Part shown: positions 33,701-50,935 of the stretch, in pieces
Layout: every line of letters begins with the position of its first letter
Numbering within the stretch: the first letter of the stretch is position 1
Virus record (IMG/VR): IMGVR_UViG_3300038345_000144
Strand: one strand, 5' to 3'
Source: a virus
Taxonomy: Duplodnaviria > Caudoviricetes
DNA length: 64,000 bases
Translations under genes and position numbers: made by a program
The notes under the pieces: model-generated
The model's input: the letters and a program-made list of their open reading frames with translations, nothing else
What the model was told of the DNA's origin: nothing
Databases searched by the model: none

Positions 33701-33756
33701 ACTAATTCCTCCTAAAAATAATGTAGTTTCTTATTATTAGCATAGAAACTGAATAG

Positions 33757-34133
33757 TGTCAACCTCCATAACTGGAGAACAGAACTGGAAACATCCAATT
33801 TTCCACAAACATTTTCTCCAAGAAAAACCCCCATTCACACGGGGAAGATACGGTAGATTTCATACTGGAAGGTGTAAACAATGAATAACCTCCGCAGATA
33901 CGGAGAATTCTTGAATATCCCGCAAAATAATGGTACTCGATTGATAAACCCCCAACAAGTGAGGAAGGTGTCCAGCGGTTTTAGAGTCGGTTGCTCTACC
34001 TGAAAAACCCCAGCAATAAGGGAAAGTGTGATGTCAGCATCTTGACCGAACAACCCCCAAAAAATGAGGAAAGCAGTCTAACCGTGTCCGAGCCTGGTGT
34101 ACTACCTGATAAACCTCCGAGAAATCGGAGAAG
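33757..34133 (-). CRISPR. degenerate type I-E-like repeat/spacer array 1 (7 repeats, no cas genes)
   Basis: + strand units GAnnAACCYCC-N-GRGGAA/GGAGAA starting near 33757, 33822, 33883, 33943, 34002, 34048, 34108; mostly ~60-bp period; reverse complement resembles GTTTTCCCCGC..GCGGGGGTGATCC. Confidence 0.75.
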
Positions 34134-34145
34134 TTAATTGATTTT

Positions 34146-34484
34146 TTAATCGTCTACGAGCATTTCCCAAGCCCTGTCGTCTTCTACTACCTTCTGGACC
34201 AAAATAAATGCTTTGAGAGCGTCAAACCAAGTAGAATTAACAAAGTTCTCGGCTTTACCCATAACCCAAACACCTTGATAGGTTAAATTGCAGGTAAAAT
34301 CATAGCCGTCAACTACTAACGGAACTTCATCAGTGTCCCAACCGTTTGCTTCTGCTGTCTTGTAGTCAAAGTGCTCGTCTTCTTTGACATACTGGGCAAA
34401 TGTCTTATAGGTCATCAATAACTCATAGTTATAACCAGAGTCATCACAAACCTCAATAATATCGTTATAAGGAATATAAGCCAT
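34146..34484 (-). CDS. hypothetical protein immediately upstream of array 1
   Basis: 112 aa; stop codon 12 bp before the first repeat. Confidence 0.75.
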   Translation of the reverse strand: MAYIPYNDIIEVCDDSGYNYELLMTYKTFAQYVKEDEHFDYKTAEANGWDTDEVPLVVDGYDFTCNLTYQGVWVMGKAENFVNSTWFDALKAFILVQKVVEDDRAWEMLVDD

Positions 34485-35212
34485 TATTCGTCCTCCTCAT
34501 CTGTTTCTTCACGCTCATCATAGTCACTCTGCTTGTAAGCATAATAGCCGTCTCCGAGGTCAATTTCTCTGCCATCATATCTTGAGATAAAGTGAGCAAT
34601 ACCGTCTACATCAATACACTCATCAACGATTGCGTCCATATCAAAAGAGATGGAACCATTCTTAACGAGTTCACGCATTTCAGACTTACCGAACTCCTGA
34701 ATGAACCACTCACCGTAACTGCTGTAATTATTGGCTACATCTTCAACGAGATAATCAACCAAGAGTTCTTCAGGGTCGTCTTTACCGATATATTTACCGT
34801 TCTCGTCAATCTCTTCTTCCTTGATTACACCAGCGTCAACACATTCCTGAATTAAGCGGTTCTCATAGGTTCCTGATACACGGTCAGGCTCGTCAGCGAT
34901 GTCACTGGCATAACCCTCGTAGTCTTCTCTACAATAGTCCTCAAACCAATCATCATCAACAGCATTGGATAAAATCCATTCAACAAATTCAGGTGTGAAG
35001 GCGTCAAGTCCTAAATCGTCCATACAGTTATCAATGTCTGCATAAGTAGCCTTTTTACCCTCATCTTCGGTAAGTACCCAGAATGTACCCTCTGGAGTTC
35101 TAAACTCTGTTGACCAGTCTTCGTAGCCCCACTCTTTAACCTGAATTTCTGACTCTTTAATGTCCAAATAATCAGCCAACAATTTTACTCTGTCTTTAAT
35201 GTTATCCAACAT
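34484..35212 (-). CDS. conserved phage-type acidic protein
   Basis: VLTEDE...DGIAHFISRYDGRE pattern; start MLDNI after GAGGAG. Confidence 0.75.
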   Translation of the reverse strand: MLDNIKDRVKLLADYLDIKESEIQVKEWGYEDWSTEFRTPEGTFWVLTEDEGKKATYADIDNCMDDLGLDAFTPEFVEWILSNAVDDDWFEDYCREDYEGYASDIADEPDRVSGTYENRLIQECVDAGVIKEEEIDENGKYIGKDDPEELLVDYLVEDVANNYSSYGEWFIQEFGKSEMRELVKNGSISFDMDAIVDECIDVDGIAHFISRYDGREIDLGDGYYAYKQSDYDEREETDEEDE

Positions 35213-35216
35213 AGTC

Positions 35217-35423
35217 TTACTCCTCATCATTAAAAATCTTATCTAACTTTGTACGCCAATCCATAGGAAATCCAGCATACATAGGACAACCCTCTGGTTT
35301 ACCCCATTCACCAAATTTCATAAAGATACACTTATCACAGCCTGTTTCTTCACAATAGGCAACCAAACCATAAGCACACTTACGAGCATATCTATCATTG
35401 TCATTAGGCTTCTTTTTAGTCAT
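35217..35423 (-). CDS. small Cys-rich protein
   Basis: YC..GCDKCIF..GC..PMDW; paralog of 38455..38634. Confidence 0.65.
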   Translation of the reverse strand: MTKKKPNDNDRYARKCAYGLVAYCEETGCDKCIFMKFGEWGKPEGCPMYAGFPMDWRTKLDKIFNDEE

Positions 35424-35793
35424 AACGCCACCTCGCTATATCTTCATATTCTACGGTGATTTCGGCTATATAATAATACTCGTTAGAGCCTGTTAAGCCT
35501 AATTCTTCAAAATCTGCCTTGATTATAAAAATCATACTGTTGTTGTCATAAAGAGCCTGGTTGACCTGTTCCTCGGTAAGCGTTCTACTGGGATTTGCTC
35601 GGTTGTACTCTTCAAGATTAACCAAGTTTGTTTTACCATCTCGACATCTGGAGATGAGATTATCGGTAATGATTTTTAGCGGGCTTATACGACACTCAAG
35701 GTCACTTAAATCACTATTGCTTAACATAGTGTTTTGAGGAATTTTGGGTAAGTGCTTGGTCAAATCAAACACGCCTCCTACTTTAATGTTCAT
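35416..35793 (-). CDS. hypothetical protein
   Basis: ORF with RBS. Confidence 0.7.
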   Translation of the reverse strand: MNIKVGGVFDLTKHLPKIPQNTMLSNSDLSDLECRISPLKIITDNLISRCRDGKTNLVNLEEYNRANPSRTLTEEQVNQALYDNNSMIFIIKADFEELGLTGSNEYYYIAEITVEYEDIARWRYD

Positions 35794-35804
35794 AAACTTA
35801 CTCC

Positions 35805-36113
35805 TTATAAATAATCGTGAACAAAGGTGTTAATCTTCTTTTTGTCCTCTTCAGAAACCTTATAGGTCTTAAAGAACTCTCTCAAAACATCAGATAACTC
35901 TGCGGGTCCAAATATTACACCATTATCATCGTCAATCATTTTATATCTTGGAGAATATCTGGAAAGCCATTTTTCGTCATCACACAGTATTCTGATGCCA
36001 TTATATTGTGTCTGGGCTTCCATATAGAAAGTATCGTTCAGACAACCCTGCTCATAGGCTCCGTCCTGAAAAAAGACATCAACGATTTCATTTTCTGATA
36101 CTTCGTGTGCCAT
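35805..36113 (-). CDS. hypothetical protein
   Basis: ORF with RBS. Confidence 0.7.
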   Translation of the reverse strand: MAHEVSENEIVDVFFQDGAYEQGCLNDTFYMEAQTQYNGIRILCDDEKWLSRYSPRYKMIDDDNGVIFGPAELSDVLREFFKTYKVSEEDKKKINTFVHDYL

Positions 36114-36123
36114 AGGCTTCTCC

Positions 36124-36432
36124 TTATTCTTCTACCAGTTTGCCAAGATAAGCAACTTGAGCGATTTTTCCCTCTAACTTGATATACTGTCTCAATTCTG
36201 GAGAGGGTTCAAAAGGCTTTAGACCTTTGTATTCCTCATCAAATATAGTTCTGATGTTTCCAAAATAATCAGTCAACAGAGATACTTCAAGTTCGTTATT
36301 GAAGATTGCTAACATCTCATCGTCAGCACCCTCGGTCATCCAATCCTCACAGCCTGCTAACTTTGCCTGCTCTGCACGGAACTGCCTGATTAAGGCACAC
36401 TGTTCTTTATTCAATATGTTGCCCATATTCAT
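36124..36432 (-). CDS. hypothetical protein
   Basis: ORF with RBS. Confidence 0.7.
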   Translation of the reverse strand: MNMGNILNKEQCALIRQFRAEQAKLAGCEDWMTEGADDEMLAIFNNELEVSLLTDYFGNIRTIFDEEYKGLKPFEPSPELRQYIKLEGKIAQVAYLGKLVEE

Positions 36433-36450
36433 ATCCTTTCGTTATACCAT

Positions 36451-36510
36451 TTATACCTGAAAGGGTATAATCTGTCCTAATTCCTGCTAAATCATACCCT
36501 ATCGGGTATA
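36451..36510. promoter_or_regulatory. pair of ATACC-N6-GGTAT palindromes 40 bp apart
   Basis: TTATACCTGAAAGGGTATAA (36451) and ATCATACCCTATCGGGTATA (36491). Confidence 0.45.
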
Positions 36511-36618
36511 TAAGGCTTGTAAATCCGTTTCTGTCGGACTTTCTCCAAACATTCTTTCAAATGTTTCAATCAGTTCAAGTCTTTTTTCTTTCTCTTCAGG
36601 GGTTAATTCTTTTTCCAT
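36499..36618 (-). CDS. 39-aa small protein (not in ORF track)
   Basis: MEKELTPEEKEKRLELIETFERMFGESPTETDLQALYTR; GAGG RBS; fills an operon gap. Confidence 0.55.
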   Translation of the reverse strand: MEKELTPEEKEKRLELIETFERMFGESPTETDLQALYTR

Positions 36619-36620
36619 AA

Positions 36621-37193
36621 TTAAACCTCATCATAATCTATTCCATTTTTCTCCAAACAATTAAGACCGTCCTTGTGAAGCATCATACGGTCTCCACTAT
36701 CATAGTCGTACCACAGACCCTCCTCATCAAGACATCTTTCAGCCTCGGCTCCGTCACCTGTTCTAAAGATTACTCTATAAACAGGGTCGGCATCGGGGTC
36801 ATAATCAAAATTCTCTTCAAGTTGGTCCAAAATGCTCTTAACCAGTTCATCTTTATTTGTAATACAAGACTCAAATTCTATATTGGTATTACGCTCCAGA
36901 TAAACAGGAAGGGTCTCAAAATCAGAGTCCAGATAAACATTCTCCAAAAAATTCTTTAAGTCTTCTGGGTCTTTGATAGTGCCTTCTTTTAATAAATAGT
37001 CTATCGTAGTCTGCTTATCTAATTTAATGAGAGGATATTCGATGATAATATCATCTGCTTCTGCCTCAAGGTCATTTGATATAACCCTAATTCCATTATC
37101 TAATATAAATTCGTGAGCCTCTGGTGGTAAAAAATCTAAAATGAAGTCTACCATACCACAAAACTCACAAAAGTTACCAATTATTTTTCCCAT
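36621..37193 (-). CDS. hypothetical protein
   Basis: ORF with RBS. Confidence 0.75.
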   Translation of the reverse strand: MGKIIGNFCEFCGMVDFILDFLPPEAHEFILDNGIRVISNDLEAEADDIIIEYPLIKLDKQTTIDYLLKEGTIKDPEDLKNFLENVYLDSDFETLPVYLERNTNIEFESCITNKDELVKSILDQLEENFDYDPDADPVYRVIFRTGDGAEAERCLDEEGLWYDYDSGDRMMLHKDGLNCLEKNGIDYDEV

Positions 37194-37218
37194 AATACGC
37201 TTCTCCTTTAATCTTTTC

Positions 37219-37548
37219 TTATCTATGCCAAACGCTTATAACAGCCTCATAAGCAGAATTAAAGATAGACAGAACACTGTCAGGGTGGGCTAATTGATAC
37301 TCATATTCAATATCCTTAACACCTTCAGCACTCTTTACGCCGATTGCTGTATGCTTAAACGCCTCTTTTAAGGCATCAAACGACTGATATGTATAAAAAA
37401 CATCATCCAGTACGCCATCTTCGGCTCTGTCTAATGCTTGGTGGACCACTCCCCACGGAACATCAGGTCTAACACCTAACTTCTTGGCAATTTTGTTCTG
37501 ATACTCTCTAAACGAGTGGTTGTCGTTGATTAACACGCAGTAATACAT
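37219..37548 (-). CDS. hypothetical protein
   Basis: ORF with RBS. Confidence 0.7.
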   Translation of the reverse strand: MYYCVLINDNHSFREYQNKIAKKLGVRPDVPWGVVHQALDRAEDGVLDDVFYTYQSFDALKEAFKHTAIGVKSAEGVKDIEYEYQLAHPDSVLSIFNSAYEAVISVWHR

Positions 37549-37562
37549 ATTAGTTCTCCTCC

Positions 37563-38057
37563 TTAAATCCTATTTTTTATCAGCCAAGATACTCCACCGT
37601 ATTTTGATGTATATACGCCTGCCTCTGCTGTTTCTTTCAAATCAGGGAAAACTTCCTTCAATAACTTAACCAGTCTTGGGTTATCGTCCTCTTGGAACTG
37701 AAGTGCTGTTTGTCTTGAAATGGTAATATTGCAAGAAGGCACACTGATTTCATCAAGTCTCTTGGCACACTGAACCAAGTTATTCAGGATGGTGTTATCT
37801 AAAGGCTGTTCGGTTACTTCGTTATCCCCTGTTCGATTTATCCAGTTAATGCCTCTATAACGGTAAACGCCATCGCCAACATCAGTTCCCTGACCGTTAA
37901 ACATCGCTTTGAAAGTAGCATTATCCTTGTAATATGTACCAATAATTGTACCAACGGCTATAAAACCATAACTGTTGATAATGCCCTTAATATAAGAACT
38001 TAACTCTTGGCATAAACAATTATCCCTGATGTTAATTAACTTCTGTTTTGAAATCAT
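37563..38057 (-). CDS. hypothetical protein, paralog of 32258..32782
   Basis: shared motifs with 32258..32782. Confidence 0.75.
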   Translation of the reverse strand: MISKQKLINIRDNCLCQELSSYIKGIINSYGFIAVGTIIGTYYKDNATFKAMFNGQGTDVGDGVYRYRGINWINRTGDNEVTEQPLDNTILNNLVQCAKRLDEISVPSCNITISRQTALQFQEDDNPRLVKLLKEVFPDLKETAEAGVYTSKYGGVSWLIKNRI

Positions 38058-38068
38058 AGGTCTTCTCC

Positions 38069-38443
38069 TTATCGGGTCATAAAGATAACAATTCTACCAC
38101 TTGAAAGGTAATATCCGTCCATTGAAGAAGGCAGGTTACATACCAAGAAATCACATAAAGACTTCTTTGAGTCTTCATTGTCCGTATAATCTAAATACTT
38201 TTTAAGCAATTCCTCGCCTGAAGTATGGTCAGCCCAATACTCTAAAAAGTCCTCATAATAATCAAACAACTGGAAGAATACCCAAGCGTTCTTATCAAAT
38301 CCTGTATAAGCACTGCCTATCATATCAAAGAGTTCTTCGGCTTCCGCAGGAGTTAGTTTATAAATTGTACCCCTTGCTCCCATATCATCTTCGGTAATAG
38401 TGGTTAGATATTTAATAAATTCGTCTTTGTCTTGTTTATTCAT
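38069..38443 (-). CDS. hypothetical protein
   Basis: ORF with RBS. Confidence 0.7.
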   Translation of the reverse strand: MNKQDKDEFIKYLTTITEDDMGARGTIYKLTPAEAEELFDMIGSAYTGFDKNAWVFFQLFDYYEDFLEYWADHTSGEELLKKYLDYTDNEDSKKSLCDFLVCNLPSSMDGYYLSSGRIVIFMTR

Positions 38444-38454
38444 ATTTGTTCTCC

Positions 38455-38634
38455 TTAATCAAACCAGCCAAAAGGTTGACCATATCCGTCGCTGTCCTCA
38501 AACATACAGGTACGGTATGGGTTGTTTTTCACATCGAAAGGACAACCAACACAACCTTCAGGCTCCTTATTTTTACAATACTCGGAAATGGCTCTTGCAT
38601 AAGCCATTAACTTTACGGCATTATCATCATCCAT
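38455..38634 (-). CDS. 59-aa Cys-rich protein (not in ORF track)
   Basis: MDDDNAVKLMAYARAISEYCKNKEPEGCVGCPF...C...QPFGWFD; AGGAG RBS; paralog of 35217..35423. Confidence 0.65.
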   Translation of the reverse strand: MDDDNAVKLMAYARAISEYCKNKEPEGCVGCPFDVKNNPYRTCMFEDSDGYGQPFGWFD

Positions 38635-38635
38635 A

Positions 38636-39958
38636 TTAGTCGTCTCCTTGTAATAGCGGGTTTTTTATTATAAATCCAATATAAACACAGTTTAGTTTAT
38701 CTGAAATAACATCACTATAATATTTCGCAGTATTGATTTTAATATTATTTTCTTTAAGTCTTGGTTTCAAAATGTCACATAGCACATCATCTAATTTATA
38801 ATCTAAAACTGTACCACTATCACTAAAATACACACAAAGGTCATAGCGATACTTCATAACATTTTTAGACATAGGAATAACCACTTCAGGTATATTGATT
38901 TTTAGGAATTCCCAATTAAAAAAACTGCTGAAATGTGAGCCATATTCGTCAGCAGAGGACAATACGGCAACTACATTAACTGGGTCCGTATTTACTACTA
39001 AAGCAGAGTCGCTCCAATCGTAATGTATAACCCTTTCAGTGCCATCATCGTCTTTATAAAAGTATGCACCTATGGTTAAAAGAAACTCTTTTTCAGTTTT
39101 TGCTTGAGGGGACGCACTGAAAAAATCATAGAACAAGTTTTCTAATGGCTCGCTTAAGTCCTCGGATTGAAGGGCTTTTGTGATTTCCTGTGTAATCTGT
39201 TTGGTATTTAAGTCTCCAAAGATTTCTTGTTGCTTTTCCTCTAATTCCCTCTTTGCTAACAGTTTCATACCATCCGAACTTCCCTCGATATAAACTGTAT
39301 AACCCTCAATAAACTTACTTGACCTACCACTCTCACCAGCACATCGTATATCCGTAGTAATAACCTTTTCAGGAATATTATCAATAAAAGGCTTAAATAT
39401 ACCTAAAGCATCTTTTATGATATGAACATCACTATAACTACAACCATTAACGGTACTATCCATATTGCGTTCTGCCTGTACGAATTTCTTGAATTCAGTG
39501 ATTTCCATATCAGTTAGAGCAATTGAGGTTGATTTGAATGTAATGGTATTAGAAAGTGGAAGAAAATCTGCTTCATCTCTTGCCCTTACACAAGCATATA
39601 GGTCATCTACGGGAAAATAACAAGCCGTTGCCGTATTATATTTAGGTACTTTGGTAAGGGTTTTATTGTCCTCATCCAATATATAATAATAGGCTTCCAT
39701 TGTATCAAGATATATGCCTTGTGGTTTTCCTAAAAAAGTAGAGGTAAACAAAAAGCCAAAGTGATATTGTTTATTATATGGGTGCAATTTATCTTCACGA
39801 TACATCTCTTTTTTACAGTTAACCACATTGAAGGATTGCATAGCGTCAGTAAACGCATCCTTCTCATTTGGAAATTTAGCAATAACGCTTTTTATTACTT
39901 CCTTATTAGTCTGGAAGTTAGTTTCCTGTCCTGCTTGTTTTAATCTCTCTAAATCCAT
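38636..39958 (-). CDS. hypothetical protein, paralog of 5291..6544
   Basis: 440 aa; MDxxxLKQ, FPxE and YxLD motifs; C-terminal IKNPL. Confidence 0.8.
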   Translation of the reverse strand: MDLERLKQAGQETNFQTNKEVIKSVIAKFPNEKDAFTDAMQSFNVVNCKKEMYREDKLHPYNKQYHFGFLFTSTFLGKPQGIYLDTMEAYYYILDEDNKTLTKVPKYNTATACYFPVDDLYACVRARDEADFLPLSNTITFKSTSIALTDMEITEFKKFVQAERNMDSTVNGCSYSDVHIIKDALGIFKPFIDNIPEKVITTDIRCAGESGRSSKFIEGYTVYIEGSSDGMKLLAKRELEEKQQEIFGDLNTKQITQEITKALQSEDLSEPLENLFYDFFSASPQAKTEKEFLLTIGAYFYKDDDGTERVIHYDWSDSALVVNTDPVNVVAVLSSADEYGSHFSSFFNWEFLKINIPEVVIPMSKNVMKYRYDLCVYFSDSGTVLDYKLDDVLCDILKPRLKENNIKINTAKYYSDVISDKLNCVYIGFIIKNPLLQGDD

Positions 39959-39969
39959 TACTAATCTCC

Positions 39970-40509
39970 TTATGCTCGCTTAACGAAATTCACTACGCTA
40001 TCCTGAACATTGTTTTTTATGCCATTAACGGTGAACAATTTTTCTTCTACCTTCGGAGGCTCAATATAGCCCTTTTCAAGGTTATAAAAAGCACCATAAA
40101 GCGTACCATCGTAAATCTTAATCAACTCTGCTTTGTCAAAAGTAACAAACTTGACCTTTGCATCGTTGATAGCGTCAAGATACATACAGACCCTTTCCTC
40201 AACAGTATGTCCAAGTTCTAAAGTGTTTTCTTTAGTAAACGCAGGACAAGGGTTATTATAATCGTTCAGGTCATAAAAACGAATACCAATAGCGGGATGT
40301 CCTAAAAACAAGCCCAAACAAAGTGTAAAGCCAGTATCTTCGGTAAAAGCAATATCAGGTTGCTTAACTACCGCATTTATTTGGTCAATTACCCAGTTTT
40401 CATACTCGTTTTCACGAAGTTGATTAGTTGGCTTGATGTTTGTTCCATCTAAAGATGTATCAATTCTGATAATCACTGTTTCTGTGTTATTCAAAGCGTG
40501 GTTGTTCAT
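39970..40509 (-). CDS. hypothetical protein
   Basis: ORF with RBS. Confidence 0.75.
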   Translation of the reverse strand: MNNHALNNTETVIIRIDTSLDGTNIKPTNQLRENEYENWVIDQINAVVKQPDIAFTEDTGFTLCLGLFLGHPAIGIRFYDLNDYNNPCPAFTKENTLELGHTVEERVCMYLDAINDAKVKFVTFDKAELIKIYDGTLYGAFYNLEKGYIEPPKVEEKLFTVNGIKNNVQDSVVNFVKRA

Positions 40510-40522
40510 AATAAGGCTCCTT

Positions 40523-41095
40523 TTATTCTTTTGCCACCAATTCTATAAATTTGTTAATAGCGGTTGCTGTGTCTTCTGCCGTGATACTTTCAAAAGACTT
40601 ATCAACATTCCACCAATAAAAGCGTTTCTCATAAGGTTGCTCGATTTTATACTTACTAATCGCATAGTGGTGCATCTTGGCAACATAGCGTAACTCGTAG
40701 GTCTCGGAAAAGATTATGTACCAGCCCGCTTCCATAAAGTGAATTTTGTCCAGCACCTCTTTCGGAGCGACAGCCTTAAGCATTTGGGTTGCTTCTTCCA
40801 AAGACTTAATGCGTTCCTGTTGGTCTATCTCGTCCTGTCTTTTCTTATTTTTGATACGCTCAACATATTTATTCAGGTCTTCTTCAGTAAAACCGTTATA
40901 CTTATCTCCACCAAACCATATATCATCGTCATATAGTCCGTCTACAACAGGTATATATACTGTTATTGGACCATAACAGGCAAAAATGTCAAGCACCTCA
41001 TCGTTCCACGGCAACTTGATTTTACCTATGATGCGTTCATAACAAAACGGTTTCTTGTCATAAATATCCTTAAAATATGCCTTTAATTCACTCAT
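40523..41095 (-). CDS. hypothetical protein
   Basis: ORF preceded by TGTAAT boxes. Confidence 0.75.
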   Translation of the reverse strand: MSELKAYFKDIYDKKPFCYERIIGKIKLPWNDEVLDIFACYGPITVYIPVVDGLYDDDIWFGGDKYNGFTEEDLNKYVERIKNKKRQDEIDQQERIKSLEEATQMLKAVAPKEVLDKIHFMEAGWYIIFSETYELRYVAKMHHYAISKYKIEQPYEKRFYWWNVDKSFESITAEDTATAINKFIELVAKE

Positions 41096-41117
41096 ATTGG
41101 ATAGGTTCCTTCCTAAT

Positions 41118-41156
41118 ATTACATTTAGATTACATTTATATTACAAACAAATTACA
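41118..41156 (-). promoter_or_regulatory. four TGTAAT boxes at exact 11-bp period
   Basis: ATTACA on + strand at 41118, 41129, 41140, 41151. Confidence 0.7.
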
Positions 41157-41593: not shown

Positions 41594-41598
41594 ACCTA

Positions 41599-42897: not shown

Positions 42898-43113
42898 TTA
42901 TCTTAAACTAATACCGACAGTCAAGACATCACCGTTAACGCTCCAGTGCATTACTTGTTTCTCGCACCAGTCATTTTCTTTCATAACCGTAGTTATAAAA
43001 TCCGTACAAGTGCCATCATAAATAACGGTCTGTTGCCAAGCGTCTTTAACGACAAGCCTTGTGAAGTCGGATAAGGTATCACAACAACCTAAAAACATAA
43101 ATAAACGCAACAT
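42898..43113 (-). CDS. small hypothetical protein (~70-aa family)
   Basis: VIYDG pattern; RBS. Confidence 0.65.
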   Translation of the reverse strand: MLRLFMFLGCCDTLSDFTRLVVKDAWQQTVIYDGTCTDFITTVMKENDWCEKQVMHWSVNGDVLTVGISLR

Positions 43114-43130
43114 AAAGGGTCTCCTATTTA

Positions 43131-43499
43131 TTAAATGTCATCCTTGTACTCTTCAACCCATTCGGTAATGTTCTTAAATCCGTCATCTTGGGCATATTCA
43201 TCAAGTAACTTCTTGAACATCTTTTCCTCATCGGCGGTGAGTTCCCAATCAAAGTCTTGGTCGCCTTTATTACTATCTACAATAATATAGATAGCAGACA
43301 ATTTGCCTGTTTCAAAGTTGTATCGGATATACATATTTATCCAAATATCATCATCGTCATTGACTTCGGTTCCAAAATACTTATCTGTATCAAACCAAGT
43401 CTCAACATAAAACTCAATAGCAGGCTGATTATCAACAAATTCAGGGTCTATCAAGCGAACATTATCTTCCTTTAACTCAATCTGTCTCTGTTTACCCAT
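43131..43499 (-). CDS. hypothetical protein
   Basis: FYVETWFDTDKYFG motif; RBS. Confidence 0.75.
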   Translation of the reverse strand: MGKQRQIELKEDNVRLIDPEFVDNQPAIEFYVETWFDTDKYFGTEVNDDDDIWINMYIRYNFETGKLSAIYIIVDSNKGDQDFDWELTADEEKMFKKLLDEYAQDDGFKNITEWVEEYKDDI

Positions 43500-43511
43500 A
43501 GGTGTTTCTCC

Positions 43512-43709
43512 TTATTCTACGATAGACACATCACCCTCTAATGAAAGTGGTGGTTCTGTTTCTTCTGGTTTTGACTCCCGAATATCAATCGGGGGTCCAT
43601 ATACATCAACTTCAGGGGCTTCAGGTGGTACGCACCCTACCAACCCAAAAGTTGTACCTACTGCCAAAGCCAAAGCAGTAAAAGTTAATGGCTTTTTTGA
43701 CCTTTTCAT
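43512..43709 (-). CDS. small putative lipoprotein
   Basis: basic N-terminus, hydrophobic stretch, lipobox LVGC; VYGPP motif. Confidence 0.6.
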   Translation of the reverse strand: MKRSKKPLTFTALALAVGTTFGLVGCVPPEAPEVDVYGPPIDIRESKPEETEPPLSLEGDVSIVE

Positions 43710-44059
43710 TTAGCAATTCCTCCGTGGCTGGCAAAGTATTCCTGTCTGTTTTCGTGCCAGTTTTTCTCAACAACAAGTGTAGTAGTAGGATAGCCAAACT
43801 CTACTGAAATATGATGGGTACTTGAAAACCAAGCAATAATGTCCTGTTTAGCCTCATCATCAATCTCGAATTCAAGTTCTTTTAGCCCCTTTCGATTAGG
43901 AATATCAAGAGTACACCAACCAGTACCGTCATATTGTCCTAAATAATCAACCTCGCAAAAGTGTGAGGAAAAACCATATCCCTGTGAGGCTAAATATTCC
44001 TTAAATTCATTAGCGATTTCTTCAGTAATACCGCCGTTTCTTGTAGGAAATCTTGACAT
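43706..44059 (-). CDS. hypothetical protein
   Basis: ORF with RBS. Confidence 0.7.
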   Translation of the reverse strand: MSRFPTRNGGITEEIANEFKEYLASQGYGFSSHFCEVDYLGQYDGTGWCTLDIPNRKGLKELEFEIDDEAKQDIIAWFSSTHHISVEFGYPTTTLVVEKNWHENRQEYFASHGGIAK

Positions 44060-44070
44060 ATAGCCACCTC

Positions 44071-44478
44071 TTAAATCTCACTCATCTTGGTAAACCTACT
44101 CCAGAGTTCGTTATAGGTAATGTTTACCGTAGCGATATAATCCCAACCTTCAAAAGTACCACCTTCGTAATACTGGTCAAGGTTAACCTTCTTAATTTCC
44201 AAAGTACCATTCTCGGCTCTATCTGTGATTACCTTTTCAATATACTCAAGGAAGGCATCTTCCTTATCTTCATCATATTCGAACTCATCGAGATTACTGA
44301 AGGCATCAATTCCCTGATTACCAATACGCTCTGGAATGTCGCCCATAATGTCGTCGTAAGGGTGAAAGATAATCTCTTCGGACTTCAAATCTTCTCCGCT
44401 ATAATCACCCTGATAACCAATATTAGGGCAATTTATATAACCGCTTATTTCAACATAAATCTTTGCTTCGTCACTCAT
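44071..44478 (-). CDS. hypothetical protein
   Basis: start MSDEA after AGGAGG. Confidence 0.7.
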   Translation of the reverse strand: MSDEAKIYVEISGYINCPNIGYQGDYSGEDLKSEEIIFHPYDDIMGDIPERIGNQGIDAFSNLDEFEYDEDKEDAFLEYIEKVITDRAENGTLEIKKVNLDQYYEGGTFEGWDYIATVNITYNELWSRFTKMSEI

Positions 44479-44491
44479 AATATTATCCTCC

Positions 44492-44887
44492 TTAATCCCA
44501 CCAAGCATAAGCATAGTCAAGGTCAAGTTCATCAGCCTCATTTGCTAAATCCTCAAAGGCATTACGCTCTGCAAAAGACTCAAACTCACAATTCTTTGTG
44601 AATGTATCAATGCTCACACGGTAATCATCACGGTCAGCACTTACAACATATCCACCAAAGCGATAGGACTCTTTACCCCACTTTTCTGCAAAATCCATCA
44701 ACTCTTTGATAGTTGGAGCACAATTTTGTCTCTCTTCAAGGTCAACAAAACCCTCATCAATTAACTGCTTTAGTGTGTTATAGGACATTTCCTCAAACTG
44801 TCTGATACCACCTGAATAAGCCTCTTTGTCATAGGAACCAAAGATAATCTCATCTCTTTTTGGCTCATTCTTGCATAAATATTTCAT
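44492..44887 (-). CDS. hypothetical protein, paralog of 61452..61964
   Basis: GGIRxFEE...PT...GYxV..RxDYRV...ADEL...AWWD. Confidence 0.8.
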   Translation of the reverse strand: MKYLCKNEPKRDEIIFGSYDKEAYSGGIRQFEEMSYNTLKQLIDEGFVDLEERQNCAPTIKELMDFAEKWGKESYRFGGYVVSADRDDYRVSIDTFTKNCEFESFAERNAFEDLANEADELDLDYAYAWWD

Positions 44888-44898
44888 AGCGTCTCCTC

Positions 44899-45414
44899 CT
44901 ACTTCTTCCAGCACCAAAGAACGCCGTCTAACTCGACATCATCTAAAATAATAGCGTCATTTGGTATTGGATATTCCTGAATTTCCATATTGCCCTTGTA
45001 TTCTTCATAGTCCTCACTACCGCTTTCAATCATAGGCTCAATATAAGCGTCTACGACATCTACGGGAGCAGAACATAACCAAACACAATAGTTTCTATCC
45101 TCAATAACGGCATCAATAATTTTCTCCAGCACTTGTTGACACTGTTCTTCGGAGTCAAATAGTTTTGTGGCTTCCCAACCATCTTTCTCGGTTATAAGCG
45201 ACATTACTACCCCTCTTAATTGAGCGTTCAACTTATCTTTATAGTGTCTGTTGATAAACTCTAATGCCCCCAAATTGCCTAACTCCATAATTTCGTGGAT
45301 AAGCACTTCCTTTGGGTCGTGATAGCCCTCACCAAAAAGGCTATCATCACGATAGCCTTTCTTACTCTTATACATCTTTTGTGCATATTCACTGCAACTG
45401 GTAATGTCTAACAT
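44899..45414 (-). CDS. hypothetical protein
   Basis: start MLDIT after AGGAG. Confidence 0.7.
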   Translation of the reverse strand: MLDITSCSEYAQKMYKSKKGYRDDSLFGEGYHDPKEVLIHEIMELGNLGALEFINRHYKDKLNAQLRGVVMSLITEKDGWEATKLFDSEEQCQQVLEKIIDAVIEDRNYCVWLCSAPVDVVDAYIEPMIESGSEDYEEYKGNMEIQEYPIPNDAIILDDVELDGVLWCWKK

Positions 45415-45424
45415 ATTGTCTCCT

Positions 45425-45940
45425 TTAAGGTTGACCTTTGCATTGGAACCACTGTGGACAACTTGTACCCGAACAAGCAAGAGGACCGCCGTTATCACAA
45501 GCCATATTACCTATGGCTCCGTCATCATCCAGTATTTCGTTGATGATGCTCTCGTTTACCGTACCTCTAATCTTGTAGTCATCATCAAATCTGACGGCAT
45601 TGTTACTAATACCCTTTTCTTGCAACTGTGTAATAACATAGTCAGCAATATCAGCCCAGTATTCATCTTCTTGCTCGTCTGTAAGTTCCTCGTCAAGTCC
45701 AAGAGTGAATATGCCATCACCGTTCTCATACTTGCCTGCAACATCACTGACCGTAAAAGCAAGGTCAACACTATCTCCATTAAAGTACAGATTGAAGTAA
45801 ATGCGTATGCCCTCTTCCAAACTGCTCTTAATGTCTGCGGAAAGAACTCTGTTTACCTGTCTCCTGATATTTGACAATACCAAGAACTCGTCTATCAGAG
45901 TCTTCATTTCATTTAACTTATCTTCTTCGTAGCCTTTCAT
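45425..45940 (-). CDS. hypothetical protein with C-terminal Cys cluster
   Basis: CDNGG..CSGTSCPQWFQC. Confidence 0.7.
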   Translation of the reverse strand: MKGYEEDKLNEMKTLIDEFLVLSNIRRQVNRVLSADIKSSLEEGIRIYFNLYFNGDSVDLAFTVSDVAGKYENGDGIFTLGLDEELTDEQEDEYWADIADYVITQLQEKGISNNAVRFDDDYKIRGTVNESIINEILDDDGAIGNMACDNGGPLACSGTSCPQWFQCKGQP

Positions 45941-46332
45941 TTTTTACCACCTTCTACCATAGCCGACCTCAAAAGTGCGTGATGGTAGTTAAGGATAGCA
46001 GATGCAGGTGAACCCTGTTCATAGTACGCAAATGAGCCTAAATCAAGGTTTTCGGGGTCTTCAACGTCATCAAAGACCAAACTAATATCCCACTGTGGTA
46101 AATTTGCGTTGTCTTCTTCTTCCCAAGCACAATAAATACCCTCAACGGCATAGTAAGTCTTACCGCCTAATGTGATTTTATAGATAGGTTCATATACAAC
46201 TACAAAGTCCTTATCTCCGAACTCTTCACTGTTGACGATTTCCTCATCGGCATCAATGTAGGAGTCTGCTACTTCGTCGCTTACCAAATAAGCCTCAAGG
46301 TCTTCCATACGGTCAAATTCTTGAATTTTCAT
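45937..46332 (-). CDS. hypothetical protein
   Basis: acidic ORF tiling the operon. Confidence 0.7.
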   Translation of the reverse strand: MKIQEFDRMEDLEAYLVSDEVADSYIDADEEIVNSEEFGDKDFVVVYEPIYKITLGGKTYYAVEGIYCAWEEEDNANLPQWDISLVFDDVEDPENLDLGSFAYYEQGSPASAILNYHHALLRSAMVEGGKK

Positions 46333-46356
46333 TTCTTTAATTTCCTTTCGTTATTT

Positions 46357-46653
46357 TTACACAAGTTTTTCGTGCTTAATCTCAATATACTCTCCGTTAG
46401 CATAAGTAGCGTAGAGTTCGTCTTCAATGGCTTCCCACCAATCCGTGCCATACATCAGGCTGGCATAATTTGAAATACGAATTTGTCCCTGTGCATTTAC
46501 AGAAACCATATTCGGCACTTCTTCTATTGCCGTTGTGCTTTCAGGAAACTCTTTCTTGAGTTGCTCCCATACCTGTCTGGGGAGCCACAACTGATACTCA
46601 TTCTCGGTATCATCATAGACACTTACAAAATCATTTAACTTAATTTTTCCCAT
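46357..46653 (-). CDS. hypothetical protein
   Basis: ORF with RBS. Confidence 0.7.
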   Translation of the reverse strand: MGKIKLNDFVSVYDDTENEYQLWLPRQVWEQLKKEFPESTTAIEEVPNMVSVNAQGQIRISNYASLMYGTDWWEAIEDELYATYANGEYIEIKHEKLV

Positions 46654-46665
46654 AATCGTCTCCTT

Positions 46666-47040
46666 TTAATCTAAATGACATCTTGTATAGAACAATTCGT
46701 CAAAAGTCTTACCATCAATCTTCAGATTTTCCCTCACATAATCAATCTGTGGTCTCTGAACGGTTGTGCTTTGTACCATATAAGCAACAGGACAAATAAG
46801 GCTATCCCAGCCATCATATTTATCCCATTCTTTACGCATTTCAGGGTCTTTTGGTGTAACTAACCACCAACCACAATCAAGTCCCCACTTACTATGCTGT
46901 TCATCTCTGCCAAGTGTTTCCAGGTCAGTATAACCCATTTGTTTCAACATATACCCAATGATAGCATTTTCATTCTCGGTAGTGAAGTTTTCAATTATGG
47001 TTTCAATTTCTTCTTTTGAAGGGAATTTACGATTTGCCAT
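46666..47040 (-). CDS. hypothetical protein
   Basis: GLDCGW...QSTT motif; RBS. Confidence 0.7.
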   Translation of the reverse strand: MANRKFPSKEEIETIIENFTTENENAIIGYMLKQMGYTDLETLGRDEQHSKWGLDCGWWLVTPKDPEMRKEWDKYDGWDSLICPVAYMVQSTTVQRPQIDYVRENLKIDGKTFDELFYTRCHLD

Positions 47041-47051
47041 AGTTCACCTCT

Positions 47052-47384
47052 TTAAGTAACGCTCTTGATATATTCTTTAAGGTCTGAAATCTCGATTTCA
47101 ATATTAAACACAATCAAATCGCAAGCCAAATCAACCTCATCAATATAAACATCTGAAGGGTCTGTAAGAATTGTTACCAACCAGTCAAAGTCATTTTCAC
47201 TGAAGGTTTTATCACTATTCTGTGCGTTGGTAATTTCCTCTTGAGTAATTCCATTATCCAATGCAAAGTTAATGAAATCATCTTTCCAAACCAAGTCCTG
47301 CATACTGTCCCAGACATACTCTCGTAAGTCGGGTTTCTCAAAATAACTTGTCAAGTTACCCATTACTACTAAATTATATTTCAT
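47052..47384 (-). CDS. hypothetical protein
   Basis: ORF with RBS; resembles 59607 and 57322. Confidence 0.7.
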   Translation of the reverse strand: MKYNLVVMGNLTSYFEKPDLREYVWDSMQDLVWKDDFINFALDNGITQEEITNAQNSDKTFSENDFDWLVTILTDPSDVYIDEVDLACDLIVFNIEIEISDLKEYIKSVT

Positions 47385-47396
47385 AGCAATATCTCC

Positions 47397-47930
47397 TTAA
47401 AAAGTCTCTCCGATTACGCCTTCTACGAATTCTTTTACTTCATTAAAATCAAAGTCGTACTCTATTTTATCATATTCCTCATCGGTTAGTCCAATAATAG
47501 CCGTTGTAGAACCCATAGGAACATCGTGAGAAGACTCGCTACAAATCAAGGCTCTACCCTCAATATGATTTTTATAAATGAAGGTAGCCTCATAAGGTCT
47601 GCGGAGAACATCAAGTATCTTGTTGCAAACGGTATAGCCACTGGCTCCATTATATCTGCAACCATTAGCAAATACCAAATAATGTGAGTGGTTTCCAATC
47701 CAAGACTCTAAAAGGTCCGTACACTCAAGGTCATCAAAGTCAGCACTTTCGTACTCAATATAATCTTCTAAATTATTCTTGCTTACGGTATCACCATCAA
47801 CACTGTTATAACCGTCTTCGTCCCAATCACAACCAGCGTCTTTGATTTCCTGAATAGCCTCTGGGGTTAAATCATCTTTGAAACTGTAATAAGTACAAGC
47901 CTCAATAATATCCATCTTCTCGTATGCCAT
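47397..47930 (-). CDS. hypothetical protein
   Basis: YNGASGY and SSHDVPMG motifs; RBS. Confidence 0.75.
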   Translation of the reverse strand: MAYEKMDIIEACTYYSFKDDLTPEAIQEIKDAGCDWDEDGYNSVDGDTVSKNNLEDYIEYESADFDDLECTDLLESWIGNHSHYLVFANGCRYNGASGYTVCNKILDVLRRPYEATFIYKNHIEGRALICSESSHDVPMGSTTAIIGLTDEEYDKIEYDFDFNEVKEFVEGVIGETF

Positions 47931-47941
47931 AAGTATTCTCC

Positions 47942-48418
47942 TTAATTCGCCCTGTCTTTTAATGGGTTGACTATCTTAATGTGATAGGTATGAAAATAGC
48001 ACTTACTATCATCATCAATTCTGCCACCACAAGTTACACCGATAACCTTTATGCCCTCAAAGTCCTTAATGATAGACTCAATATGTGTTGCTAACATATC
48101 ATTTTGCCAATAGTTGTAGTCGTGTGGGTTTTGAATGTTATCAAATACTGGTCCTTCTATACGGGAGCCTGTGCTATTCATCTTGTCATAAAGATTGTAA
48201 TAAAAGGCAATATTACCACTTCCCGTTCTGGGTAAACCAACGCCAAAGAAGATGTCAAGGTTGTCATTTGAGGGTAACTCGCCTCTTTCGGTTACGCCTA
48301 CAAGATAATCACCAAATCTTTCCTCGGTTAATTGGTCGGTTATAGCCCTTTTGAGTTTTAACATAATTCCGCTATCGCCCTGATTTGCCTGTCTCATTCT
48401 GTCTGCTATACTTGGCAT
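47942..48418 (-). CDS. hypothetical protein, GIK...NPL family
   Basis: C-terminus GIKVI...IVNPL. Confidence 0.7.
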   Translation of the reverse strand: MPSIADRMRQANQGDSGIMLKLKRAITDQLTEERFGDYLVGVTERGELPSNDNLDIFFGVGLPRTGSGNIAFYYNLYDKMNSTGSRIEGPVFDNIQNPHDYNYWQNDMLATHIESIIKDFEGIKVIGVTCGGRIDDDSKCYFHTYHIKIVNPLKDRAN

Positions 48419-48430
48419 AAATGTTCTCCT

Positions 48431-48940
48431 TTAATATTTGAATTCTTCTTGGAATGTTTCAATAGAGATAATCGGTAAACCCGCATATATTTCTTGTAAG
48501 CCAACAACCAACTCATCATCAGGATTGTTACGGCTTTTTACTGATGGGAATTCAATCTCTGGTACTGGGTATGGATATTCCGCAGGGTCGCCTGTCATAA
48601 TGCCAGTATGTCTCTCTGGGATATATTCACCCTCCCACTCAAAGTCCACATCATCAACACTGACAGTAATGAAAATTGAGTAGAAATCAGAGTCCGTAGG
48701 CGAATAATCAACCCTCTTACCCGAAATCTTGCGAACATAGATAAGGTCATACTCGTCTACCTTCTCTTTAGGTATTTTTGTGACCTTTGTGTAGTAAGGA
48801 ATGATGAGAGCGTTCAATTTATTGATAAACGATATATCATTTACCATTTCCTCTGCTCTCTTAAAGGCGATGTCTGCCTGTTGACCCTTTTCTGCCTTTA
48901 ATTGAATGTGTATTGTCTGTATAAAATCAGTGGTCTCCAT
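48431..48940 (-). CDS. hypothetical protein
   Basis: ORF with RBS. Confidence 0.7.
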   Translation of the reverse strand: METTDFIQTIHIQLKAEKGQQADIAFKRAEEMVNDISFINKLNALIIPYYTKVTKIPKEKVDEYDLIYVRKISGKRVDYSPTDSDFYSIFITVSVDDVDFEWEGEYIPERHTGIMTGDPAEYPYPVPEIEFPSVKSRNNPDDELVVGLQEIYAGLPIISIETFQEEFKY

Positions 48941-48950
48941 AAAGTTCTCC

Positions 48951-49145
48951 TCATTTTGTTTGTAGATAAATTTTGTATGCCTCTTTGACTTTAGGGATAT
49001 TCATATAGCCGTTTTCTTTGTCTCCGCAAGGCTCCTTAACTACCTGCTCTAACGCCGTCATAAGTTCCTGACAACGACCTCTACCACAGGCTTTTACATT
49101 TCCCTGTTCGTCAAATACTTTTGCATACAATTCTTCAATAGTCAT
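48951..49145 (-). CDS. small hypothetical protein
   Basis: LYxxVFDxxGxVKACGRxxC pattern. Confidence 0.7.
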   Translation of the reverse strand: MTIEELYAKVFDEQGNVKACGRGRCQELMTALEQVVKEPCGDKENGYMNIPKVKEAYKIYLQTK

Positions 49146-49160
49146 AAACTTGGTCCTTTC

Positions 49161-49661
49161 TTAATCATACATATTACTTGGTGTAGTGTTAACAATCTCT
49201 CTTAACTTATCAACGGTATATACACCTCTCTGAATATCCTCGTATAGATGGTCAAAACAGTTGTCATTGATAAATGGAGAGTCAACTTCAACCTTTGTTG
49301 GTGTAAAATTGAAGAATACCGTAGCATAATCTCCGTACTGATGCCAACTATAATCGGTAATCTTGTGTTCTTTGATTTTCTTTATTAAATCTAATAATTG
49401 AGCATCATCAAACACTAATTGGTCTAACCCTTCGCTTCGGTCAAACAACAACATAAGGGTTGTTTCTTCGTTATAAGTGTCCCAAATCTGCCAGCAAGCA
49501 TTTTGAATATTATTCAAAGTCTGGAGGGATAATTCGCCTGCCAACTTTTCCCATTCTTGCATTTCCAGATAGGCTAAACAACTACATATTGTGTCTTCAT
49601 TAGCCCCTAACCACAATATATCGGCATCAGTAAGTCCATCTAAATACTTCCAACCGTACAT
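49161..49661 (-). CDS. hypothetical protein
   Basis: ORF with RBS. Confidence 0.7.
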   Translation of the reverse strand: MYGWKYLDGLTDADILWLGANEDTICSCLAYLEMQEWEKLAGELSLQTLNNIQNACWQIWDTYNEETTLMLLFDRSEGLDQLVFDDAQLLDLIKKIKEHKITDYSWHQYGDYATVFFNFTPTKVEVDSPFINDNCFDHLYEDIQRGVYTVDKLREIVNTTPSNMYD

Positions 49662-49671
49662 AAGTTACTCC

Positions 49672-49992
49672 TTAATCAAAACTTTCTATTTTTCTAAAAC
49701 AGGTTCTATCACAAAAATATGGCTTACCATTTGCTATGATAATGTCGGAGGTAGACATACTTCTGCCTTTATAATCGGCTGGGTGATGTTGATTAAACTC
49801 ACAAAAGAGCGACTCAAGATAATCATAAATATCAAGTAAGTCGGTCTCATCTACCCTGTTATATACCTTTTCATAGTTATCAGTAGTAAACTTAAAGCCA
49901 TTTTCGGTGCAGAACTCATAGTCCATAAAACCAAAAGTTCTAAACTGTGGGCAATCGTGTGGGATTTGCCAAATCTCAAATGCTACTATCAT
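49672..49992 (-). CDS. YodL-like domain protein
   Basis: IWQ...NYEKVY...LESLFCEFNQHHPADYKGRSMSTSDII...YFCD..F matches the YodL signature. Confidence 0.75.
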   Translation of the reverse strand: MIVAFEIWQIPHDCPQFRTFGFMDYEFCTENGFKFTTDNYEKVYNRVDETDLLDIYDYLESLFCEFNQHHPADYKGRSMSTSDIIIANGKPYFCDRTCFRKIESFD

Positions 49993-50003
49993 TTCCTATC
50001 TCC

Positions 50004-50075
50004 TTACTCTTCACTGCATAAGCACCAGAATAGTTCAATCCCTAATATCATAAATAGGGCAATTATTCCAGCCAT
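50004..50075 (-). CDS. 23-aa hydrophobic peptide (not in ORF track)
   Basis: MAGIIALFMILGIELFWCLCSEE; GAGGTG RBS; stop fused to the next RBS (TAAGGAG). Confidence 0.55.
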   Translation of the reverse strand: MAGIIALFMILGIELFWCLCSEE

Positions 50076-50113
50076 TCTTTTTCACCTCATTTAACCCAGT
50101 TTCCTTCGCCTAT

Positions 50114-50141
50114 ATTACATTTATGTTACATTTAGATTACA
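50114..50141 (-). promoter_or_regulatory. three TGTAAY boxes at 11-bp period
   Basis: minus strand TGTAAT-CTAAA-TGTAAC-ATAAA-TGTAAT. Confidence 0.7.
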
Positions 50142-50408
50142 TTACTCTAACTCAACATCGAGTATGCCGTCTGATGTAACATAGAAATTCTTGATATTTC
50201 GCATAGTAAGGGTGTTTTCAGCGTTCTGAATGGTTAATGCTGGACCTGTCAGGTAGGTTTTACCGTTATTATGGTCAATCTGAAACTTCAGCAGTTTATC
50301 ACCATTCAATAAACCCTCTGTTGCATTATTCTTCGACCAAATACGCACTTGACTGTTATTTTGGTCGCCATCTGGTCTGTAATGTAAAATCAATTCGCCT
50401 AACTGCAT
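50142..50408 (-). CDS. hypothetical protein downstream of array 3
   Basis: start MQLGE after AAAGGA; the longer track start lies inside a repeat. Confidence 0.7.
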   Translation of the reverse strand: MQLGELILHYRPDGDQNNSQVRIWSKNNATEGLLNGDKLLKFQIDHNNGKTYLTGPALTIQNAENTLTMRNIKNFYVTSDGILDVELE

Positions 50409-50434
50409 ATGTGTATTTCCTTTCTTATATATAA

Positions 50435-50935
50435 ATAGTGCCTCCATATCTGGAGAAATTTAGTTTTAACATAAGTCTTTATGTGTTCCCAAGAAAAACC
50501 TCCGAACAGAGAAATAGCGTACTATTAAGGGTGATGTTGTTTAGTCCACCGATAAACCCCCGTGTTCGGGGAAAAGACTCAAGGTATTTTTGCGTTGATT
50601 AGTCCAACCGAATAACCCCCCATATATACGAGGAAACCTAAACCATTCTGACTATATCAGGAGTACCGTCAGATAAACCCCCGTGTGTACGGAGAAACGG
50701 AAAAATTGGCTCTTTTTTGCATCATTTGTCCGAACAACCCCCGTGTGCGAGGAAACCGAGATTATCCATATATAAGTAGCAATACCCGTGGAATAACCCC
50801 CAATATTGGGGAAAACTCAAACGAAGATGTTATGGAAGTTATTTATGAGGAATAACCCCCGTGTTCGGGGAAAATAACCTCCACCAGTTTGTTTTATGCC
50901 AAAATAAGAATAACCATCAATGATACGGGTCATAA
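50435..50935 (-). CRISPR. type I-E-like repeat/spacer array 3 (9 repeats, 32-35 nt spacers)
   Basis: units near 50435, 50493, 50551, 50610, 50672, 50732, 50791, 50850, 50908; best copy on minus strand TTTTCCCCGAACACGGGGGTTATTC; 58-62 bp period. Confidence 0.85.

Follow-up and report, generated by a model that had tools for sequence, protein, structure and literature searches.

In the canonical type I-E CRISPR system, as found in E. coli and Thermus, Cas6e processes the array transcript into CRISPR RNAs (crRNAs) of 61 nucleotides (nt). The repeats have a C-rich 5' arm, a G-rich 3' arm, usually a tetraloop and a handle of ~8 nt; spacers of ~32 nt recur with a period of ~61 nt up to a degenerate terminal repeat, and between strains the spacers are variable at the leader end and conserved at the trailer end. 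These properties of repeats and spacers are shared by three clusters of hairpin units which we describe here from a stretch of viral DNA of 64 kilobases (kb; IMG/VR record IMGVR_UViG_3300038345_000144, hereafter the window). In all likelihood these clusters are CRISPR arrays, encoding guide RNAs, of a cattle-gut phage of ~400 kb which apparently has type I-E Cas genes of its own. The repeats of these arrays all differ in sequence while forming the same hairpin, and their spacers are mostly swapped between strains and not made by duplication. The window arrays differ from the canonical ones in that they keep only the structure and a 6-nt handle, with no identical adjacent repeats; they are leaderless, start 3-20 nt past the stop codon of the upstream gene and are scattered among ordinary genes; they have no adjoining cas1 or cas2, and they contain occasional inverted spacers.

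Huge phages with adaptation-less Cas systems and compact arrays are known (PMC7162821; PMC11656645; PMC13037316), and Al-Shayeb et al. 2020 gave a median of six repeats for phage arrays (PMC7162821). Arrays were detected with MinCED in two of these studies (PMC7162821; PMC13037316) and additionally with CRISPRDetect in the first (PMC7162821). The window phage resembles the huge-phage systems of PMC7162821 in its size (>200 kb), its apparent Cas effectors, the lack of Cas1/Cas2 in a complete relative and the compactness of its arrays, which have 5-8 units; the type I example cited there is, in contrast, an I-C variant. Dispersed, leaderless type I-E arrays with repeats conserved in structure only were not described in the literature searched.

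Structure of the repeat units

All genes in the window (38% G+C content, GC) are oriented on the minus strand, and the hairpin units occur between genes, as three clusters and a solitary copy. In the minus-strand reading, each unit has a stem of 5-8 base pairs (bp), C/U-rich in its 5' arm and G/A-rich in its 3' arm, whose loop of 3-6 nt is closed by a U-G pair; the stem is followed by the handle UUNWUC and then by the spacer, which has no general sequence conservation. The E. coli type I-E repeat-spacer unit has a geometry of the same design. The units are located as follows (L047 is an array at another locus).

33757-34134, minus strand: array 1, seven hairpin repeats (U1-U7) and six spacers
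34114, 34054, 34008, 33949, 33889, 33828 and 33763, minus strand: hairpin 3' ends of U1-U7
33763-33778, minus strand: terminal repeat U7 of array 1, without the UUNWUC handle
41661-41893, minus strand: array 2, five units (W1-W5)
~41750-41775, minus strand: unit W3 of array 2, stem broken
Terminal unit W5 of array 2, minus strand: without handle; a homolog of the W4 spacer occurs in L047
50435-50871, minus strand: array 3, eight units (V1-V8)
50856, 50797, 50738, 50678, 50616, 50557, 50499 and 50441, minus strand: hairpin 3' ends of V1-V8
51214-51239, minus strand: solitary repeat unit, UAUCCCCAAUAUUUGGGGG plus UUAUUC, intergenic, directly ahead of the ribosome-binding site (RBS) of a gene for 94 amino acids (aa)

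On folding, stems of 5-8 bp were formed by 20/20 window units, and by 5% of the other purine-rich ends in the window, taken as a control. Among 55 distinct hairpins, drawn from the window together with alleles in other strains, stem pair 3 was C-G in 28, U-A in 22 and U-G in 5, with no mismatch, and stem pair 6 was G-C in 32, A-U in 11, G-U in 6 and U-A in 1, over 37 loop variants. The U-G pairs would be C-A mismatches on the opposite strand, such wobbles being able to pair only on the minus strand, which is the sense strand; it is there that structural selection acts on the hairpin. The distance from a handle to the next hairpin was 36-37 nt in 13/16 cases, which corresponds to a 32-nt spacer plus two handle nucleotides and 2-3 nt of the 5' part of the repeat, and gives a unit period of ~58-61 nt. 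The units thus have type I-E repeat geometry, with a spacer length held near 32 nt, and the constant spacer of ~32 nt and period of ~61 nt of a type I-E array were found likewise in the alleles and in a complete related phage genome, G001. The hairpin and ~8-nt handle of a type I-E repeat are borne out by the structure, the covariation and the conserved UUNWUC. Near-identical direct repeats of 28-29 nt within an array were not found, the stem pattern and UUNWUC alone being retained; V1 and V6, which are not adjacent, have one hairpin sequence in common. The terminal repeats of arrays 1, 2 and 3 all lack the handle, possibly because the last repeat of an array would need to supply only a 3' hairpin.

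A hairpin followed by a U-rich tail could also be read as a transcription signal, and the clusters would then be tandem weak intrinsic terminators, or hairpins that stabilise messenger RNA (mRNA), insulating transcription units. Terminator scans found 3 against 0.7 expected and 5 against 1.1, and a promoter-like site lies past array 1. A lenient scan passed 8 units, with short stems and UUAUUC-like tails. Such a role would not call for a ruler of 36-37 nt, the poorest U-tails are those of the terminal units, and the solitary unit stands directly before an RBS with no promoter between them. Since the same units also occur inside a cas operon, and other arrays of this class have identical repeats (both described below), we regard this explanation as very improbable. 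Further candidates, namely an integron attC site, plasmid iterons, centromere repeats, TIGR arrays and small-RNA genes that have promoters of their own, were set aside on account of the geometry, the strand-specific covariation and the absence of promoters.

Turnover of the arrays between strains

The phage comes from cattle gut and recurs in 15 studies, with no RNA data set among the sequencing runs listed for it. Contigs from four other runs were 95-99% identical to positions 33000-52000, and 10/15 of the listed joints fall in the three arrays, which occupy ~1.2 kb (~6%) of this 19-kb stretch. The rearrangements include deletions of 56, 79, 116, 220 and 226 nt, all but that of 79 nt being described as unit-sized, one duplication of 104 nt and three strand switches. 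In array 1 the spacer order is 1-2-3-4-5-6 in the window and 7-2-3-4-5-8, 7-2-1'-4-9-8 or 1-2-3-4-8 in the other strains, and spacer 6 of the window is spacer 8 in reverse complement. For array 3, eight further alleles in which the upstream 94-aa protein is 100% identical have only trailer-end spacers in common: spacers 20 and 21 and the terminal repeat are kept in most alleles. In terms of the window array, the spacers of V6 and V7, together with the terminal unit V8, are kept in most alleles examined, the upstream spacers being strain-specific. The leader-end spacers are mostly unrelated between strains, yet all have the length of 36-37 nt. The array of one strain (L063) equals that of another (L058) plus one unit at the upstream (proximal) end, and in a third (L062) spacer 20 is inverted. 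The alleles of array 3 thus have the polar turnover of a CRISPR array, with a new leader end and an old trailer end.

Altogether, 36 spacer families were found in ~15 alleles with identical flanking proteins. Since neutral divergence is only ~4-8% for these alleles, and ~3-12% at four-fold sites between the strains, point divergence cannot have produced the unrelated leader-end spacers. Two spacers of L004 (array 1) recur in L047 with 33/33 and 35/36 identical positions, and their flanking hairpins are fully different. The hairpin upstream of the conserved spacer 20 differs in nearly every strain, and hairpin sequence therefore changes faster than the neighbouring spacers. Between strains the arrays change unit by unit while the trailer end stays conserved; the dominant process is that whole units are gained, lost and exchanged, mainly at the upstream end, which is also the case in ordinary CRISPR arrays, and duplication with divergence is a minor route to new spacers (families 1/3 and 19/20).

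The preliminary description had proposed CRISPR-like arrays with spacers that evolved by duplication and divergence rather than by Cas1-Cas2 acquisition. The CRISPR-like character and some duplication (families 1/3 and 19/20) hold up, and Cas1 is missing from the complete relative G001; as the main source of spacers, duplication is contradicted by the unrelated leader-end spacers.

Arrays 1 and 3 had also been described as collinear paralogs, on motifs that are indeed present in both. AATAGTG(TCAA)CCTCCATAwCTGGAGAA stands at the low-coordinate end (plus strand) of each (33751-33778 and 50437-50459), CCAAGAAAAACC comes next (33818-33829 and 50489-50500), and the sixth unit from the distal end is GAACAACCCCC...GAGGAAA (34048-34073 and 50731-50757) with GCATC..TTG.CC ahead of it. 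When the arrays were registered at their distal ends, the diagonal of the array 1 by array 3 score matrix was no better than random assignment (P = 0.25 for repeats, 0.19 for spacers and 0.25 for whole units), and collinear paralogy is not upheld. What truly corresponds is U7 with V8 (reciprocal best) and the penultimate handle UUUUUCUUGG; for the sixth unit (U2 with V3) the correspondence is weak. The terminal repeat UCUCCAGWUAUGGAGG also closes L047, a third, unrelated array, which makes it a specialised end unit and no evidence of whole-array paralogy. A first repeat, UCUCCGAWUUYUCGGAGG, is likewise common to arrays 1, 2 and L047, as part of a 47-bp module listed below. The arrays own specialised first and last units, and it is these that give the impression of collinearity.

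A further claim was that spacers share their seed-side ends. The first 16 nt of 16 spacers were compared, with shifts of up to 3 nt and 2000 shuffles. The two pairs originally quoted, U1/U3 in array 1 and V5/V6 in array 3, exist and rank as the top two of all pairs by 5'-end match: V5/V6 agree at 13/16 positions (P~0.005 for the maximum over all pairs) and U1/U3 at 11/16 (P~0.06 as the runner-up). Averaged over all pairs, 5'-end similarity was 6.77 against 6.60 +/- 0.14 in the shuffles, so that the sharing stands for these two pairs and fails as a general rule. By reading of the sequences, U1 and U3 are alike across their full length, and a relative has an intermediate spacer with nine differences from each; this argues for duplication of a whole unit and not for retention of a seed.

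Shared ends had suggested regulation by partial matches. CreA/CreR are degenerate mini-CRISPRs whose crRNA-like regulators repress promoters via partial matches. By analogy, arrays 1 and 3 would be old paralogs whose duplicated and diverged spacers use their seed ends to guide Cascade to partly matching promoters. Degenerate repeats working with Cascade, and spacers that do not come from acquisition, would be common to both. The two shared 5' ends, the duplicated families and the lack of Cas1 in G001 agree with such a role. CreA/CreR is, however, a single unit with one pseudo-spacer matching a nearby promoter, whereas here there are 5-8 units per array in place of one pseudo-spacer between two degenerate repeats, 36 families and rapid turnover; seed-end complementarity to promoters was not found in the cas promoter regions, the window or G001. 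The absence of general seed conservation and of significant collinearity, and the 36 unrelated families between identical flanking proteins, speak against this explanation, which we consider very doubtful; the searches that bear on its targets are given below.

Cas genes and canonical arrays in relatives

G001 is a complete phage genome of 467 kb with direct terminal repeats, in which ~35 open reading frames (ORFs) of the window have homologs at 24-54% identity, the sortase-pilus operon included. Judged by these shared genes, it belongs to the same clade as the window phage. The operon region comprises a sortase, a signal-peptidase-like protein, pilins and an adhesin of 2339 aa with 24-45% identity (window 16613-27458; G001 295.9-311.7 kb); since this sortase-pilin-adhesin block is conserved in both huge phages, it appears to be a feature of the clade and not a recent pickup.

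G001 has six clusters of the same hairpin units, all on one strand, and ten handle-to-hairpin distances from five of these clusters are 35-37 nt. One cluster, a five-unit array at 245.96-246.22 kb, lies inside a cas operon with the order Cse1 (515 aa), a 168-aa ORF, Cas7e, Cas5e, Cas6e, the array and Cas3. The 168-aa ORF is at the position of Cse2/Cas11 and has no family match; Cas3 has HD and helicase domains. Cas1 was not found in the complete G001 genome with two different models. The Cas3 of G001 (246,271-248,982; L031 6271-8982) carries an N-terminal Cas2e domain (PF09707, E 2.8e-10) in a frame of 903 aa, and is thus a Cas2-Cas3 fusion in a type I-E setting; the 800-aa Cas3 of the window lineage is without this domain. 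For the Cas7 of G001 there are 63 homologs, the longest of their contigs measuring 532 kb.

Two of these contigs, L048 and L050 (39-40% GC), encode Cse1-Cse2-Cas7 (432 aa)-Cas5-Cas6e, followed by a 60-nt gap with two hairpins and by Cas3 (800 aa). The cas6e-cas3 gap, which in L050 comes after Cas6e at 4849-5430, reads ..CTCCCCGCTTCGGTGGGGG ACGCTTTC TTTCCTTGTATTACGGGG TATAAACA A ATG (L050 5431-5490; L048 8431-8490). Its second hairpin ends in TATAAACA, 1 nt ahead of the cas3 ATG in both contigs, and Cas6e could cut its own operon mRNA there. Such self-processing of cas mRNA by hairpin units in the gap is conceivable, and would be one more point in favour of a regulatory role as in CreA/CreR. 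The run from which L048 was obtained (SRR16020831) also yields a 178-kb contig with the array 1 locus of the window and an identical neighbouring protein of 57 aa. Based on the operons of G001, L048 and L050 and on this contig from the same run, it is likely that Cascade, Cas6e and Cas3 are all encoded by the window phage itself. In L048 the gene that immediately precedes the cas operon region, at 1865-3772, is of the radical SAM type and is split by an intein that has a LAGLIDADG domain (Pfam).

Arrays were also sought with a structure-agnostic pattern of three handles at a spacing of 45-56 nt. Canonical arrays of the same design with identical repeats were found in L009 (..CCCCGCCAGCGCGGGGGTTGTTCG), L066, L076 and L080, and L068 has four copies of ACTTTCCCCGTGTGTACGGGGGTTATTC with a period of 61 nt and a degenerate last repeat. 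The handles in the canonical arrays are GUUGUUC, GUUAUUC and GUUUAUC. The mini-array of L068 (2536-2749) is on a 3.1-kb contig binned as Prevotella and with no cas gene, where it adjoins an EcoRI-like methylase and a GmrSD/HNH nuclease. Degenerate arrays like those of the window occur on phage contigs, namely L006 (467-kb phage) and L007 and L011 (60%-GC phage). The seven-unit array of L007 (G002 17.3-18.1 kb), on a 60%-GC phage contig, has a longer conserved 5' part of the repeat (CTCGCAAACACCTCCCC..) and variable handles, and adjoins Cas7e and Cas6e; no Cas3 or Cas1 was found on this 73-kb fragment. The same design in phages of 27% GC and 60% GC implies that it is not a one-off.

RNA anti-CRISPRs and solitary phage repeat units have been mentioned (PMC11656645), and the window arrays are similar to these in being phage-borne repeat-like hairpins, including the solitary unit. 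They could accordingly be decoys that mimic type I-E repeats in order to soak up host Cas6e or Cascade, with the spacers as filler. The repeat class, which is that of canonical bacterial type I-E arrays, the solitary unit at 51214-51239 and the lack of a target for any spacer in the searches made would all fit a decoy. The window arrays differ from RNA anti-CRISPRs, however, in having full spacers of constant length in a lineage that owns a Cascade. Related phages have Cascade in full and Cas3, and their operon encloses an array of this sort; filler, moreover, would not be expected to show polarised turnover or to include spacers that are exactly conserved across loci. A decoy function therefore seems highly unlikely to us.

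Spacer targets, mechanism and surrounding features

No search yielded a spacer target, host and rumen viromes being covered in part. Neither seed nor full-length spacer matches above chance were obtained in the window, nor did the whole G001 genome match its own spacers, or 700 kb of related DNA match 42 distinct spacers, above chance. A phage collection gave one chance match (E=0.4) to the spacers of arrays 1 and 3, IMG/VR contained no protospacer for three conserved spacers, and one degenerate spacer-family pattern run against JGI metagenomes found only another array. Seed-anchored matches in the cas promoter regions of L048-L050 did not exceed those of shuffled spacers (P 0.76-1.0). Spacer V4 (50636-50671) agrees over its first 19 nt at 18/19 positions with the giant adhesin gene of G001 (308,432-308,450, encoding NGDGTPDIV); as a lead to a target this match is marginal after multiple testing, with ~0.05 such chance matches over all spacers by a rough estimate.

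The proposal that retained seed ends serve partial-match regulatory targeting rather than cleavage thus finds no seed match in the window, G001, the 700 kb of related DNA or the cas promoters, and retention itself concerns two pairs only. The HD and helicase domains in the Cas3 of relatives are a further argument against a purely regulatory role, and make cleavage possible. Regulatory seed targeting is unsupported, and interference is unproven.

Several observations weigh against the reading of the clusters as arrays of a phage-encoded type I-E system. Protospacers were nowhere above chance, no cas gene lies within the 64-kb window, and the link to cas genes comes from the relatives and the contig from the same sample. 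Adjacent repeats are never identical, unlike the product of canonical Cas1-Cas2 insertion, the arrays are leaderless, and a simple terminator scan accepts several of the units. Some strains have two of the conserved spacers in inverted orientation, which is awkward for a guide dependent on a protospacer-adjacent motif. Spacers shared by the window and L005 differ at 9/114 nt, against 7/95 four-fold sites; since this is about the neutral rate, purifying selection on the guides is not demonstrated.

If the clusters are CRISPR arrays of this kind, they would be transcribed by read-through from the upstream genes, given that they have no leader or promoter-like site of their own. The Cas6e of the phage would cut 3' of each hairpin, yielding a crRNA of ~61 nt in which an 8-nt handle (UUNWUCNN) precedes a 32-nt guide and then the following hairpin. 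Such crRNAs may then load into the phage Cascade and recruit Cas3 against competitor or host DNA. New spacers would enter mostly upstream, by cassette exchange between arrays or strains or through an integrase supplied in trans, with unit duplication and inversion as minor routes.

More tentatively, a clade of ~400-kb rumen phages may run a type I-E system whose arrays are non-repetitive by design, and which gains spacers upstream without a phage Cas1, by non-canonical acquisition or exchange of cassettes. If Cas6e reads only the shape and a 6-nt handle, the repeats would be free, or even selected, to diverge, and their divergence could protect leaderless arrays that are scattered through a recombining genome. 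The cassettes might be gained through a host integrase acting in trans or by recombination among a population-wide pool of spacers, which would also account for the inverted spacers and the new solitary repeat.

MinCED and CRISPRDetect depend on near-identical repeats. Standard CRISPR finders would for that reason be expected to miss arrays of this type, and, if so, phage and perhaps also cellular CRISPR are undercounted. The arrays are a natural experiment on what Cas6e and Cascade would need from a repeat, namely its shape and a short handle only, and may show how an element without Cas1 keeps its set of guides current. Type I-E repeats that tolerate variation could also be useful for multiplex guide arrays that do not recombine.

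The following features adjoin the arrays.

50872-50916, minus strand: degenerate lead-in of array 3, two handle remnants (GGTTATTC and GGAGGTTATT) and no intact hairpin
34108-34154, minus strand: 47-bp module, 94% identical to 41870-41916
33733-33762, minus strand: promoter-like site TTGACA-18-AATAAT (11/12), immediately past the terminal hairpin of array 1

The lead-in is private to the window strain; in the other alleles the first repeat begins 3 nt past the TGA stop codon. The solitary unit at 51214-51239 is an insertion of ~28 nt, also found in the window strain only, six other alleles reading AAATAAAGGAGGGGCTGAATG. The 47-bp module takes in the end of the upstream gene (its final codons and stop), a linker of 19 nt and the first repeat, and a Logan contig of the source sample ends within its copy at 34108-34154. 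No promoter-like site and no AT-rich leader of the kind expected of a CRISPR array were found upstream of the arrays. The promoter-like site past array 1 precedes the RBS and ATG of a 187-aa gene (33700) and is conserved in L002-L005.

An Rfam search and a tRNA scan of the window gave no match, megablast and tblastn against phage and plasmid collections returned no relatives, and exact repeat and terminal-unit patterns had 0 matches in IMG/VR. Pfam searches with 20 window proteins identified sortase and pilin families and nothing else. A 440-aa gene at 38446-39965, with no family match, is accessory and missing from some strains, contigs of other runs joining across it with 1518 or 1285 nt skipped. 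Phased direct repeats of the ATTACA/TGTAAT type with an 11-bp period (family D3) are located at 41116-41156 and 50112-50152, just downstream of arrays 2 and 3 and before the next gene block.

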